NCBI RefSeq assembly: GCF_056712565.1
Contig: NZ_CM160072.1
Reading direction: 5' to 3' (one strand)
Length of the DNA stretch: 64,000 nucleotides
In this document: piece after piece, positions 8,014 to 11,199 of the stretch
Position numbering within the stretch: position 1 is the stretch's first letter
How the letters are laid out: each line of letters opens with the position of its first letter
The notes under the pieces: generated by a model
Told to the model about the DNA's origin: nothing
The model's database searches: none
What the model saw: only the letters and a program-made list of their open reading frames with translations
Program-made: the position numbers and the translations under genes

Positions 8014-9616
8014 ACTGTTGCAAAAGCTGACCCGTAGCTGTTTTGCCGACCGGGATGCACTGGATGTGGCGCGAACACAGGCGGCGCTGTGGCAGACATG
8101 GCTGCTGCCGGTGACGGCAGACACGCCGGTCGGGGAAGACCCCGGCTACCACGACGATTTCCTGCGTATACGCGACGAAATGAACAAACTTTCCGGCACA
8201 GATACCGGCCTTATCTGCCAGCTTGCCGAATCCCTGCTGCTGACGCAGGCCAAAGACGTGCGCATCGCCACTTACTACATCTGGGCGCGACTGCACCGCG
8301 ACGGTGAGCGCGGACTGGCGGAAGGACTGGCGCTGCTGACCGGACTGGTGGAACGCTTCGGTACGCAACTGCTGCCCTCGCGTCCGGCCAGCCGGAAAAT
8401 GGCGCTGGAGTGGCTGGCAGGGGAAAAGATGCTCGACAGCCTTGCCCGCTACCCGGAAGTGGCAAAAGAGGATTTTGCGAACATTGTTGCCGCTCTTAAT
8501 CAACTGACGGTTTCCTTCACTGCATGGCCCGAAGACCAGCATTCCCCCTCCCTGATGCCACTGATTAACGCGCTGGAATCACGTCTGGCGCAGTCGGGCG
8601 GGATGAACGCGGTGGTGCCGCAAAACAGCAGCAGCGTTACTGCACCGTCATCCCCGGTGGATGCGCCACAGGTACAGACCATCACCTCCGGGCGTGACCT
8701 GCTCGACCAGGCGAAAGTGCTGGCCCGTTATCTGAACGAACAGCCGCAGGGCTGGCTTTCGGCGCACCGGCTGATGAAAACCCTGCGCTGGGACACGGTG
8801 CATGAACTGCCGCCGGATGTGGACGGCAAAACCCGGCTGGCCCCGCCGCGCACCGAGTCACGCAACCAGCTTAAGCGGCTGTATGCCCAGCAGAACTGGA
8901 CGGAACTGCTGGAGCAGGCCGACCTGATGTTCAGCACCGGCGTCAGCCATTTCTGGCTGGATATCCAGTGGTATCTGCATCAGGCGCTGACTAAGGCGGG
9001 CGTACCGTGGGACAGGTGGACAGCTGTTATCCGTCAGGACCTGGCGTTACTGCTGGAACGCCTGCCAGGGCTGGAAAATCTGGCATGGAACGACGGCACG
9101 CCGTTCGCCGATGAGGTGACGCGCAACTGGATAGCGCAGCAGGTCATGATGCGGGAAGACGGCGCATGGCTTGCGGGGAAAGCCGCTGTACCGACAGACG
9201 ACGCCACAAATGACGTACTGGCGCTGGAGCCGGAAGCACTGGCGATGGCAGACAGTCAGGGCGTGGAAGCGGCGCTGGGCTGGATACAGACCCGTCCGGG
9301 CATCACCACGGCACGACAGCGCCTGTTATTGCGACTGCTGATGGCGCGGGTGGCGGAACAGTACGGTAAAAACGAGATGGCGCTCCTGCTGCTGGAAGAA
9401 CTGGATACCGCCGCACAGGGAATAACGCTGACGCAGTGGGAGCCAGAACTGCTGTTTGAAGTAAAAGCCCGGCAACTGAAACTGCTGCGTCTGCGGGCGC
9501 ACCGCTATGCGGATAAAGCCCTGCTGAACCGAAAAATGGAAATCCTGCTGGGAACGCTGGTGGCAATCGATCCGGCACGGGCAGCGGTACTGTGTGATAC
9601 GCAACATAAGGACTGA
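8006..9616 (+). CDS. tssA: TssA (ImpA N-terminal domain protein)
   Basis: ImpA_N-like signature ...PVGEDPGYHDDFLRIRDEMNKL...IATYYIWARL...GLALLTGL. ATG 8006 overlaps the tssM stop (ATGAGTGA); alternative in-frame starts at 7979 and 7991. Confidence 0.75.
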   Translation: MSELLQKLTRSCFADRDALDVARTQAALWQTWLLPVTADTPVGEDPGYHDDFLRIRDEMNKLSGTDTGLICQLAESLLLTQAKDVRIATYYIWARLHRDGERGLAEGLALLTGLVERFGTQLLPSRPASRKMALEWLAGEKMLDSLARYPEVAKEDFANIVAALNQLTVSFTAWPEDQHSPSLMPLINALESRLAQSGGMNAVVPQNSSSVTAPSSPVDAPQVQTITSGRDLLDQAKVLARYLNEQPQGWLSAHRLMKTLRWDTVHELPPDVDGKTRLAPPRTESRNQLKRLYAQQNWTELLEQADLMFSTGVSHFWLDIQWYLHQALTKAGVPWDRWTAVIRQDLALLLERLPGLENLAWNDGTPFADEVTRNWIAQQVMMREDGAWLAGKAAVPTDDATNDVLALEPEALAMADSQGVEAALGWIQTRPGITTARQRLLLRLLMARVAEQYGKNEMALLLLEELDTAAQGITLTQWEPELLFEVKARQLKLLRLRAHRYADKALLNRKMEILLGTLVAIDPARAAVLCDTQHKD

Positions 9617-11199
9617 TGGCAATGGGAACAGGCTACTTTCTGGTCAGGGGGGACAAAACCACCTGCGGCGGGAAGATTATTGAAGGCGCGGACGACCATA
9701 CGATCATGGGTATCCCACAGGCACGGGATATGGATCGGGTCACCTGCGGCAGATATCCGGGAATGTTTATTATTGTGGGCGGCGTGCCGGAAACGGATAT
9801 TCACGGCAGGCTGATGGCGGGATCTCTGGACAACCAGAGCAGTTGCCCGTGCAAGGCGCGGTTTATTGCGTCAATGATGGATGATACCTATGAAACGGAT
9901 GACGGGGGAAGCGAGCCGGAACAACATGCGCAGTCGGCGAGGAAAAATCTGACTTCCGGTAATCCAGATAAAAAATACAGTCATCAGATAAAACTTCAAC
10001 ATGGCGAAAATAATGTTAGTGTACAGGACATACCTTATGTCTTTATCCTAAATAATAACATGTCTCTCAGTGGCAAGACTAATCAGGATGGCGAGACTGA
10101 GAGAATATATACAGATACTGCTCAAAAGGTAATTGCACTTACAGGAAAACTGGCTGATTCCTGGCTGAAAAGAGGGAAAAATTTTGGTTCATTAAAAGAA
10201 ATTGACAATAGAAAGATCGAATTAACAACTGAAGAGAATGAACCTGTAAAATATGTCAACTGGATTAATAGGCGTGATTATATTGTGATTGTGGCGGCCA
10301 GAACAGCCGTAACAAACTGGATAGGAATGGAGGACTCAAAAGGAAATCAGTATCGATTTATAAATTGTGGATTAGAACAATTACAACAGTTTCCTCCAGC
10401 CAGTAAACAGGATTCCAGTTCGCAGCGAATTATGGTGGTTTTTTCGCTTGGGTATACGCAAAAAGATATTGATAGAATTAATGATTATACTAAAGCGCAC
10501 GATGGAAGAATTATCTATGTCAAGAATAAGGATGAATTAGTTTCATTCCTGAATCAACGCAAAGAAAAAGGAAGAGTGATTAAGGAACTGGTTATTCTGT
10601 GCCACGGTGTTATTAAAACAGCTTCATATCATTATCATCATGAAGACAAGGATATTGAAAAAAATGGAATGTTTAAACATGAAGATATTGCAGCAGTTCA
10701 CGAGTCAGTTTTTGATTATGATGCCCATGTGACAACATATGCCTGTCGGGCCGGTATCTCAGATGGTGATAAAGATTTTTCCGGGAAGGATGATGCAGGG
10801 CAAAAGGACAGCCCGGCACAGAAAATGGCTGATAACTGGGATGTCATGGTTAAAGCGTTTGAGATGAGATCGGACTACAGTCTGGCTTATGGGACAGGCA
10901 AGGAAATTAAAGAAGCTCAGGAATATGGTAGTGTGGTAGAAAAATATAAAAAAGATATAGATATGTATAATAAAGAAAAAGCAAAGGGGAATACTGAAGT
11001 TTCCCCTCCAGTGAAACCAGAGGGATATGATGAGAAATCAAAACGCCATGCAGATGTTACTACCAGAGACAAAAATGAAAAGTCTGGCGGAGGACCAATA
11101 GCTCCTAATGGTGCATGGCATATGCCAAGAACAGGGGATTCGCCGAAAGGGCTGAAAAGCGGGTTACAGGATTATCAGCCTGAGGAGTGGGTTCAATAA
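9616..11199 (+). CDS. PAAR-domain protein fused to an uncharacterised C-terminal toxin-like domain (527 aa); candidate T6SS effector
   Basis: N-terminal about 95 aa is PAAR-like (GDKTTCGGKIIEGADDHTIMG...VTCG...SSCPC) and GC-rich. The rest is AT-rich with the motifs LVILCHGV and TTYACRAG. ATG overlaps the tssA stop (TGATG). Confidence 0.75.
   Translation: MAMGTGYFLVRGDKTTCGGKIIEGADDHTIMGIPQARDMDRVTCGRYPGMFIIVGGVPETDIHGRLMAGSLDNQSSCPCKARFIASMMDDTYETDDGGSEPEQHAQSARKNLTSGNPDKKYSHQIKLQHGENNVSVQDIPYVFILNNNMSLSGKTNQDGETERIYTDTAQKVIALTGKLADSWLKRGKNFGSLKEIDNRKIELTTEENEPVKYVNWINRRDYIVIVAARTAVTNWIGMEDSKGNQYRFINCGLEQLQQFPPASKQDSSSQRIMVVFSLGYTQKDIDRINDYTKAHDGRIIYVKNKDELVSFLNQRKEKGRVIKELVILCHGVIKTASYHYHHEDKDIEKNGMFKHEDIAAVHESVFDYDAHVTTYACRAGISDGDKDFSGKDDAGQKDSPAQKMADNWDVMVKAFEMRSDYSLAYGTGKEIKEAQEYGSVVEKYKKDIDMYNKEKAKGNTEVSPPVKPEGYDEKSKRHADVTTRDKNEKSGGGPIAPNGAWHMPRTGDSPKGLKSGLQDYQPEEWVQ

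Follow-up and report, generated by a model that had tools for sequence, protein, structure and literature searches.

A PAAR-linked protein of an Escherichia coli type VI secretion cluster with a predicted clan CD-like Cys-His domain and a candidate immunity partner

We analysed a 64,000-nt window of contig NZ_CM160072.1 (assembly GCF_056712565.1), in which an E. coli type VI secretion system (T6SS) cluster carries a gene for a protein with an N-terminal PAAR head and a long C-terminal tail. The structure model of the tail resembles clan CD cysteine peptidases, such as caspases, legumain and gingipains, and its putative catalytic His and Cys are invariant among relatives. On the basis of sequence and model we consider it probable, though with considerable room for doubt, that the gene encodes an uncharacterised antibacterial cysteine peptidase toxin, delivered by its PAAR head, that would act in the periplasm and be countered by the product of the adjoining gene. 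The features of the locus are as follows.

4660-8013: tssM, T6SS core gene upstream
7979-9616, + strand: tssA, T6SS core gene upstream (RefSeq annotation of the identical locus)
9616-11199, + strand: PAAR-toxin gene, 527 aa in the list of open reading frames (ORFs); RefSeq WP_001351084.1 has 525 aa and starts at 9622
9616-9897, + strand: PAAR spike-tip module, residues 1 to about 94, with a guanine-cytosine (GC) content of about 0.55
9898-9975, + strand: acidic disordered linker and recombination junction, residues about 95-120; predicted local distance difference test score (pLDDT) below 50 for residues 100-116
9976-10143, + strand: five-stranded small beta-sandwich, residues about 121-176
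10240-10947, + strand: clan CD-like catalytic core, alpha/beta/alpha, residues about 209-444
10603-10608, + strand: His330-Gly331, predicted general base (H330 at nt 10603-10605 by translation)
10744-10755, + strand: Cys377-Arg378-Ala-Gly380, predicted nucleophile loop (C377 at nt 10744-10746 by translation)
10948-11196, + strand: C-terminal extension with two long helices and a conserved tail, residues 445-527; high pLDDT, conserved in alignment A1
11199-11828, + strand: predicted cognate immunity gene, 209 aa, with an N-terminal membrane anchor and a C-terminal domain predicted to be periplasmic
12898-14658, + strand: tssF, T6SS core gene downstream, where the low-GC insert stops (RefSeq annotation)

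According to the ORF list and RefSeq, the gene order is tssM, tssA, the PAAR-toxin gene, two small ORFs, tssF, tssG and tssJ. The cluster is of the E. coli T6SS-1 type, found in extraintestinal and avian pathogenic E. coli (ExPEC and APEC) strains resembling sequence type ST95, in UTI89 and in the type strain. In ATCC 11775, where the locus is identical, RefSeq starts WP_001351084.1 two codons after the ORF start, and an AAGGA at 9608-9612 is compatible with either ATG (9616 or 9622). The protein is labelled in RefSeq solely as "PAAR domain-containing protein", occurs in the type strain of E. coli as well as in numerous further genomes, and belongs to a cluster of 483 member sequences with 100% identity (P0001). 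In the literature searched, WP_001351084 is not mentioned, and among publications on T6SS or PAAR proteins together with caspase-like, clan CD, gingipain/legumain or Peptidase C80 domains or with UTI89 none was found that characterises the family.

A sequence-only reading of this DNA had assigned the N-terminal 95 residues to a GC-rich PAAR module, and our data agree: Pfam places PAAR_motif (PF05488) at residues 12-68 (E = 1.1e-08), in DNA with a GC content of 0.55 (9600-9899). An N-terminal PAAR domain encoded within a T6SS cluster is found in the PAAR-fused specialised T6SS effectors, as are an exchangeable C-terminal module and an adjoining downstream candidate immunity gene, both of which the sequence suggests here. 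We regard the protein as very probably a T6SS effector. Pfam found no family beyond PAAR in the full toxin, and NCBIfam matched neither the toxin nor the two ORFs that follow it. When the whole protein was searched against PDB sequences, only the TRPV3 channel was returned (E about 0.006, residues 139-277), which we judged a chance match. An effector of the prePAAR/Eag type was ruled out, since the toxin sequence has neither a transmembrane segment nor an N-terminal prePAAR motif.

From residue 1 to about 94-105 the protein shares 90-97% identity with the heads of further E. coli PAAR proteins, whose tails are S-type pyocin/colicin-E3-like, DUF2235 lipase-like, Ntox44 or others. Similarity stops somewhere from residue 94 to residue 140, according to which PAAR toxin is compared. 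The GC content decreases to 0.425 (9900-10099) and 0.35-0.37 (10000-10700), stays low to about 12900 and is back at about 0.57-0.60 at tssF. Because the break in similarity coincides with the drop in GC content, and the same head bears unrelated tails, the tail is best explained as a swapped-in toxin module, as had been suspected from the composition change around 9890-9960. Of 5,426 complete E. coli genomes, 159 have both the tail and the downstream gene (at least 99% identity), always on the chromosome and in single copy; the carriers include UTI89, APEC O1/O2:K1 strains and ATCC 11775. The low-GC insert measures ~3 kb (about 9900-12900) within a T6SS cluster that otherwise has 57-65% GC, and its right-hand edge is formed by about 370 bp of non-coding DNA (12529-12897, 27-30% GC) between a membrane-protein ORF and tssF.

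Residues 100-527 were modelled with AlphaFold2 from a 61-sequence alignment (mean pLDDT 91.7; predicted template modelling score 0.89). Fold comparison of the model returned clan CD enzymes as the best matches, with fold-match figures of 11.0 for legumain, 10.8 for the legumain-type ligase OaAEP1, 10.4 for glycosylphosphatidylinositol (GPI) transamidase, 10.4 and 10.0 for gingipains R and K, 10.0 for a SAVED-CHAT protease, 9.2 and 9.1 for metacaspases, 8.8 for caspase-9, 8.5 for MALT1, and 8.4 and 7.8 for the cysteine protease domains (CPDs) of MARTX and TcdA. In the model, the predicted core forms an alpha/beta/alpha sandwich whose central sheet can be superposed on those of caspases, legumain and gingipain.

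The sequence-only reading had also noticed an HG...ACRxG pair 47 residues apart and likened it to the dyad of caspases, gingipains and the MARTX CPD. The observation holds, and the likeness is supported. Translation places LVILCH330G at nt 10588-10608 and VTTYAC377RAG at nt 10729-10755, with 47 residues from His to Cys. None of 200,000 shuffles of residues 100-527 that preserved composition gave the pattern of a hydrophobic block with HG followed after 30-60 residues by a hydrophobic block with AC. Of the 123 stretches in the window that run for 100 aa or more without a stop, the PAAR-toxin ORF alone contains it. In clan CD enzymes the dyad is carried by loops L3 and L4, after strands beta3 and beta4, and a Gly beside the His is kept in all families (PMC4357240). 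The AlphaFold2 model has the same arrangement: strand 320-328 (RVIKELVIL) leads into C-H330-G and strand 366-374 (FDYDAHVTT) into Y-A-C377, so that His precedes Cys, each stands in a loop after a strand, and Gly adjoins the His. With this topology His330 and Cys377 would be juxtaposed in three dimensions.

A profile search run exhaustively on 1.84 billion cluster representatives yielded 361 relatives at E <= 0.001, of which 234 reached E <= 1e-10. Conservation was counted in a hidden Markov model (HMM) alignment of 152 of the 361, representatives at 50% clustering. His330 and Gly331 were each present in 138 of 138 sequences, Cys377 in 139 of 139 and Arg378 in 138 of 139, while the position of Gly380 was occupied by Gly or Ala in all 139. 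Further near-invariant positions were Ser399 (135/136), Gln402 (127/136), Arg418 (135/138), Ser/Thr419 (137/138) and Tyr421 (134/138); C329, directly before His330, was not conserved. We consider a clan CD-like fold with a conserved His/Cys centre highly likely.

The tail of 430 residues, treated as one unit in the sequence-only reading, is AT-rich as stated there but is not a single domain, as the model divides it into linker, beta-sandwich, core and C-terminal extension. The last of these ends in the motif GGPIxPNGAWHxPxTGxxPxGLKxGLQxYxPxEW, conserved in alignment A1. Among 135 core-bearing representatives, 45 have the C-terminal extension and 2 the beta-sandwich. The core is followed by at most 60 residues in 106 of the 135 and by more than 100 in just 2; as it is the final element in most relatives, the core is the better candidate for the toxin itself than for a releasing peptidase. 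In Acinetobacter gerneri (L004, 5692-6000) the beta-sandwich is a separate 102-aa ORF that ends 1 base before the toxin gene starts, and three short proteins of 102-152 aa (P0139, P0154 and P0170) match the beta-sandwich region alone. The split arrangement therefore recurs and is probably not caused by sequencing error.

The domain is found in a range of protein contexts. A word-indexed search retrieved full-length PAAR-fused relatives from Phytobacter and Salmonella. Stand-alone relatives of about 440 aa occur in Xenorhabdus, Yersinia, Serratia, Enterobacter, Cronobacter, Klebsiella and Photorhabdus, and forms of about 320 aa in, for example, Acinetobacter; one relative is a VgrG fusion (P0041). 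In four Bacteroidota proteins of 1,203-3,864 aa (P0150, P0147, P0181 and P0161) the domain starts 8-13 residues past the Rhs-associated core. In Yersinia, Enterobacter, Xenorhabdus and Photorhabdus the gene for the stand-alone form comes behind vgrG and the gene of a DUF4123 adaptor, and in Pseudomonas resinovorans a separate PAAR gene precedes the toxin homologue. A terminal position behind Rhs core, PAAR or VgrG is the behaviour described for the C-terminal domains of polymorphic toxins by Zhang et al. (2012). The relatives in AFDB50 are labelled as uncharacterised, DUF4347, PAAR or RHS, apart from a few strays (one "Peptidase C80 family", one alpha/beta hydrolase, one endo-mannanase and one membrane protein). 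One AFDB50 relative comes from the basidiomycete Meripilus lineatus (A0AAD5YBR6, 544 aa; 26% identity over 291 columns, E = 3.8e-17 to the toxin model) and may stem from horizontal gene transfer into a fungus or from bacterial DNA contaminating the assembly. Within their N-terminal part of about 30 residues, the stand-alone homologues of about 440 aa have in common a segment, PxCxGxxGxPxxxCNQ, with two conserved Cys (alignments A1/A2); in E. coli the PAAR head and linker occupy this place. The segment may be a docking element for the DUF4123 adaptor or for VgrG.

The nearest counterparts described are two effectors of the Pseudomonas aeruginosa H3-T6SS, Tce1 (PA0256, DUF4347; PDB 9qpe) and Tce2 (PA2372), described as "putative cysteine protease effectors" (Paracuellos et al., Nat Microbiol, May 2026; PMC13323088). 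Their His and Cys (His186/Cys240 in Tce1) align with the dyad of TcdB, their targets are unknown, and Tce1 is carried inside Hcp3 rings (PMC13323088). PA0256 had earlier been listed as a DUF4347 protein and putative antibacterial toxin (PMC8262886). To the remark of the sequence-only reading that the tail is not recognisable as any characterised T6SS toxin family it must now be added that Tce1 and Tce2 are structural relatives. Like Tce1 and Tce2, the E. coli protein would be delivered by a T6SS and has a proposed His...Cys dyad, and its domain is structurally equivalent to the C-terminal domain of Tce1, at 12% identity. On the other hand, the toxin did not match the Pfam DUF4347 model (PF14252) even at E <= 10. 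DUF4347 matches at E <= 0.001 were obtained for 9 of 61 close relatives and 3 of 29 core sequences; residues 103-195 of one of them (P0052) match model positions 19-109 of 164, spanning both His and Cys. Tce1 was not reached at E <= 10 when close-family (A2) and broad-core (A4) profiles were run against all PDB sequences, nor by phmmer with P0052. A 310-aa relative (P0175) was considered as PA0256 itself and rejected, as its His and Cys lie at positions 130 and 172. By sequence, the E. coli toxin family is a peripheral sister group of DUF4347 rather than a member of the profile. Further differences concern delivery, in the Hcp lumen for Tce1 as opposed to PAAR, VgrG or Rhs fusion or DUF4123-dependent cargo for the family studied here; the extra beta-sandwich and C-terminal extension of the E. 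coli toxin; and a conserved partner gene with a predicted exported product, which Tce1 and Tce2, proposed to be anti-eukaryotic, lack.

In E. coli this partner gene starts most likely at an ATG (11199) that overlaps the toxin stop codon (TAATG) and is preceded by GAGGAG. RefSeq begins the gene at an internal Met (MYRQEYQ..., 11274; 184 aa), which removes a 25-residue N-terminal anchor. The anchor is kept in the Yersinia, Xenorhabdus and Acinetobacter orthologues, and the Enterobacter gene call (L003, 7398) is likewise shortened, with a hydrophobic in-frame extension immediately upstream. A word-indexed search with the partner found close E. coli-type relatives only. Directly 3' of toxin homologues, partner homologues were found at six other loci in five genera with 21-50% identity to the E. 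coli product: 50% in Enterobacter, 46% and 34% for the first and second copies in Yersinia, 40% in Xenorhabdus, 23% in Photorhabdus and 21% in Acinetobacter. The two Yersinia mollaretii copies (L002, 7317-8608) are tandem paralogues behind the toxin gene. Tandem paralogous copies are typical of immunity-gene arrays.

In most partner products, 2-5 Lys/Arg stand at the start, ahead of a hydrophobic segment; by the positive-inside rule this predicts an N-in/C-out anchor with the body in the periplasm. An AlphaFold2 model of the E. coli partner (pLDDT 79.8) shows an N-terminal helix at residues 2-31 and then an alpha+beta body. The genes 3' of two Bacteroidota Rhs toxins encode proteins with lipoprotein signal peptides (...LIIASC and ...LILSC) and without visible homology to the E. 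coli partner. As the partners are predicted to be anchored or to be lipoproteins and the effector has no transmembrane segment or prePAAR, a toxin that is antibacterial and acts in the periplasm, with the downstream gene providing immunity, is the reading that synteny and predicted topology favour, and we consider it reasonably probable.

The next ORF (12067-12528, + strand) encodes a 153-aa, very AT-rich, multi-pass membrane protein, which belongs to no Pfam or NCBIfam family and one RefSeq homologue of which is labelled 'DUF1240 domain-containing protein'. It was rejected as a second immunity gene for this toxin: it is present in 283 of 5,426 E. coli genomes, also by other PAAR toxins or beside tssA, and is thus independent of the toxin. 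A homologue with 91.5% identity lies beside a different PAAR toxin in NRG 857C, and homologues with about 86% identity directly beside tssA. It is probably an orphan immunity gene from earlier module swaps.

In the mechanism that we propose from sequence and model, the PAAR head would cap the VgrG spike and the whole protein would be fired into a neighbouring Gram-negative cell. There, Cys377 as nucleophile and His330 as general base would act on a peptide or amide bond by clan CD chemistry, so that an envelope component in the recipient periplasm is cleaved or transpeptidated. Sister cells would be shielded by the partner, anchored in the inner membrane, facing the periplasm and translationally coupled to the toxin. 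Sequence and computation show the gene structure, the PAAR domain, the module swap, the fold, the invariant His-Gly and Ala-Cys-Arg residues, the terminal placement in polymorphic toxins and the conserved downstream gene with its membrane anchor. Peptidase chemistry, immunity function and periplasmic site are what we infer here; proteolysis of a protein, rather than other acyl-transfer chemistry, is favoured by a small measure. Transpeptidating enzymes (legumain ligases, GPI8) are among the best fold matches.

In caspases, Arg on L1, Gln on L4 and Ser-Trp-Arg on L5 hold the P1 carboxylate, and the L5 aromatic residue is conserved (PMC4357240). Candidate counterparts in the E. coli model are Arg378, in the loop that follows the Cys strand, Ser399/Gln402, where the next helix begins, and Arg418-Ser-x-Tyr421 after strand 411-415. 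By analogy, and speculatively, Arg378, Ser399, Gln402, Arg418, Ser/Thr419 and Tyr421 could together make up an S1 pocket that receives a P1 group with a carboxylate. Such a basic pocket would accommodate an acidic residue at P1 or the carboxylate of a peptidoglycan stem peptide. Beyond E. coli, we put forward tentatively, at slightly less than even chance, a large, phylum-spanning family of antibacterial, periplasmic caspase-fold toxins, with the E. coli toxin as founding example, directed at stem peptides or an essential envelope protein, each with an exported immunity protein.

Several results weigh against a periplasmic cysteine peptidase with cognate immunity. The likeness to clan CD is structural only, at 7-14% identity; HMMER/Pfam gave no clan CD match for the toxin, and the A2 and A4 profiles retrieved no clan CD chain from the PDB sequences. 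The partner model had no significant fold match in the PDB (best E = 0.12, a weak NTF2/cystatin-like resemblance that we leave uninterpreted), the anchor of the E. coli partner is weakly hydrophobic (mean Kyte-Doolittle 0.94), and the RefSeq gene is without it. Tce1, the closest solved relative, lacks an immunity gene and was harmless to both E. coli and yeast when expressed there, and Tce2 is toxic to yeast in a manner that depends on Cys115, the authors favouring an anti-eukaryotic role for it (PMC13323088).

This Cys-dependent toxicity to yeast, together with the harmlessness of Tce1 and Tce2 in E. coli (PMC13323088), speaks for an anti-eukaryotic effector of the Tce2 kind. The carrier strains are extraintestinal pathogens and one AFDB relative is labelled Peptidase C80 family, which would also suit it. 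A host cytosolic protein would then be cleaved, perhaps after activation by a host cofactor, as inositol hexakisphosphate (InsP6) activates the C80 domains of MARTX and TcdA/B, and the downstream gene would not confer immunity. We consider this rather unlikely. In every lineage checked, across two phyla, there is a coupled, co-varying partner with an export or anchor signal, which is an effector-immunity signature; the domain is widespread both among the Rhs proteins of Bacteroidota with a free-living habit and in Xenorhabdus and Photorhabdus, which are associated with insects; and the toxin gives no match to Pfam Peptidase_C80. Periplasmic targeting is also not reported for the E. coli tests of Tce1 and Tce2 (PMC13323088). 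It is still less probable that the domain is a self-processing releasing peptidase that frees cargo from the PAAR tip, with toxicity residing in the C-terminal tail or the beta-sandwich. Most caspase-like domains of polymorphic toxins are of that type, but the C-terminal-most ones are likely toxins (Zhang et al. 2012, PMC3482391). The conserved 85-residue extension after the core would be compatible with a releasing role; yet the core is last in most relatives, given the scarcity of tail and beta-sandwich noted above (45 and 2 of 135), stand-alone cargo forms have no carrier to leave, and the Rhs forms have the domain straight after the Rhs core, which itself self-cleaves.

A real Cys-His centre could also serve non-proteolytic chemistry, as a peptidoglycan amidase or endopeptidase, as a transpeptidase or ligase (legumain-type, GPI8), or as a deamidase or acyl-transferase on the envelope. 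The predicted periplasmic partners would match those of the Tae and Tlde cell-wall toxins, which use a catalytic Cys, and the invariant Arg/Gln/Ser could bind a stem-peptide carboxylate. On the other side, no clan CD member is known to act on peptidoglycan, and the data do not discriminate between substrates; we regard this alternative as unlikely, though one to keep in mind. That the match is a generic alpha/beta/alpha sandwich likeness of a domain unrelated to clan CD appears very improbable. No sequence-level link to any clan CD family was found, as this would predict, but the invariant His-Gly and Ala-Cys stand exactly after the two strands that bear the clan CD dyad, no nucleotide-binding Gly-rich loop is conserved, and relatives match DUF4347, the family of Tce1.

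The domain can be set beside other systems. It is like the clan CD peptidases (legumain C13, gingipains C25, caspases and metacaspases C14, clostripain C11, CHAT, separase) in the order His then Cys, the strands, the Gly by the His and the 47-residue spacing, and differs from the families of MEROPS clan CD in having no detectable sequence homology to them, other accessory domains and a predicted role as a T6SS-secreted inter-bacterial toxin. The C80 domains of MARTX (RtxA) and TcdA/TcdB are also toxin-borne clan CD peptidases and served the Tce1 authors as reference dyad; they are internal, InsP6-activated, self-processing and host-directed, whereas the E. coli domain is terminal, has an immunity-like gene beside it and gave no Peptidase C80 profile match. 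The 'Tox-Caspase' class (Zhang, Aravind et al. 2012, PMC3482391), compared here by its published description, likewise comprises predicted toxins with a caspase-fold His/Cys domain at the extreme C-terminus. The delivery routes surveyed for it were type VII secretion, PVC, TcdB/TcaC and type II secretion, T6SS being unlisted (PMC3482391). The proposed E. coli system is similar in outline to Tae and Tlde1, although the folds are unrelated and cell-wall activity of the E. coli domain is hypothetical. Tae amidases (NlpC/P60 fold) and Tlde1 (L,D-transpeptidase-like) are periplasm-delivered Cys enzymes with exported immunity proteins encoded directly downstream.

An antibacterial, periplasm-acting T6SS toxin with a caspase fold and a Cys-His centre has not been characterised before. 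If the wider reading, with a family of periplasmic caspase-fold toxins, is correct, no clan CD enzyme before this one would have served as a weapon between bacteria with a cognate immunity, and the non-toxic score of Tce1-type effectors in E. coli would merit reconsideration with the periplasm in mind. The identity of the substrate would define a new killing mechanism and clarify the function of DUF4347-like domains; T6SS toxins have much new enzymology to offer, as well as probes for essential processes of the envelope. The family is tractable, with members in UTI89, APEC and the type strain, a predicted effector-immunity pair, an invariant predicted active-site set and hundreds of diverse relatives from Proteobacteria and Bacteroidota. 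The allele is present in only about 3% of complete E. coli genomes, which may bear on gut competition among extraintestinal pathogenic lineages.

Elsewhere in the window, the - strand carries four successive large ORFs at 26693-38486; their sizes (608, 1183, 962 and 1122 aa) match those of E. coli recD, recB, ptrA and recC, to which they may correspond. The sole tRNA gene of the 64-kb window, tRNA-Gly(CCC), is located near its right end (63453-63526, - strand).

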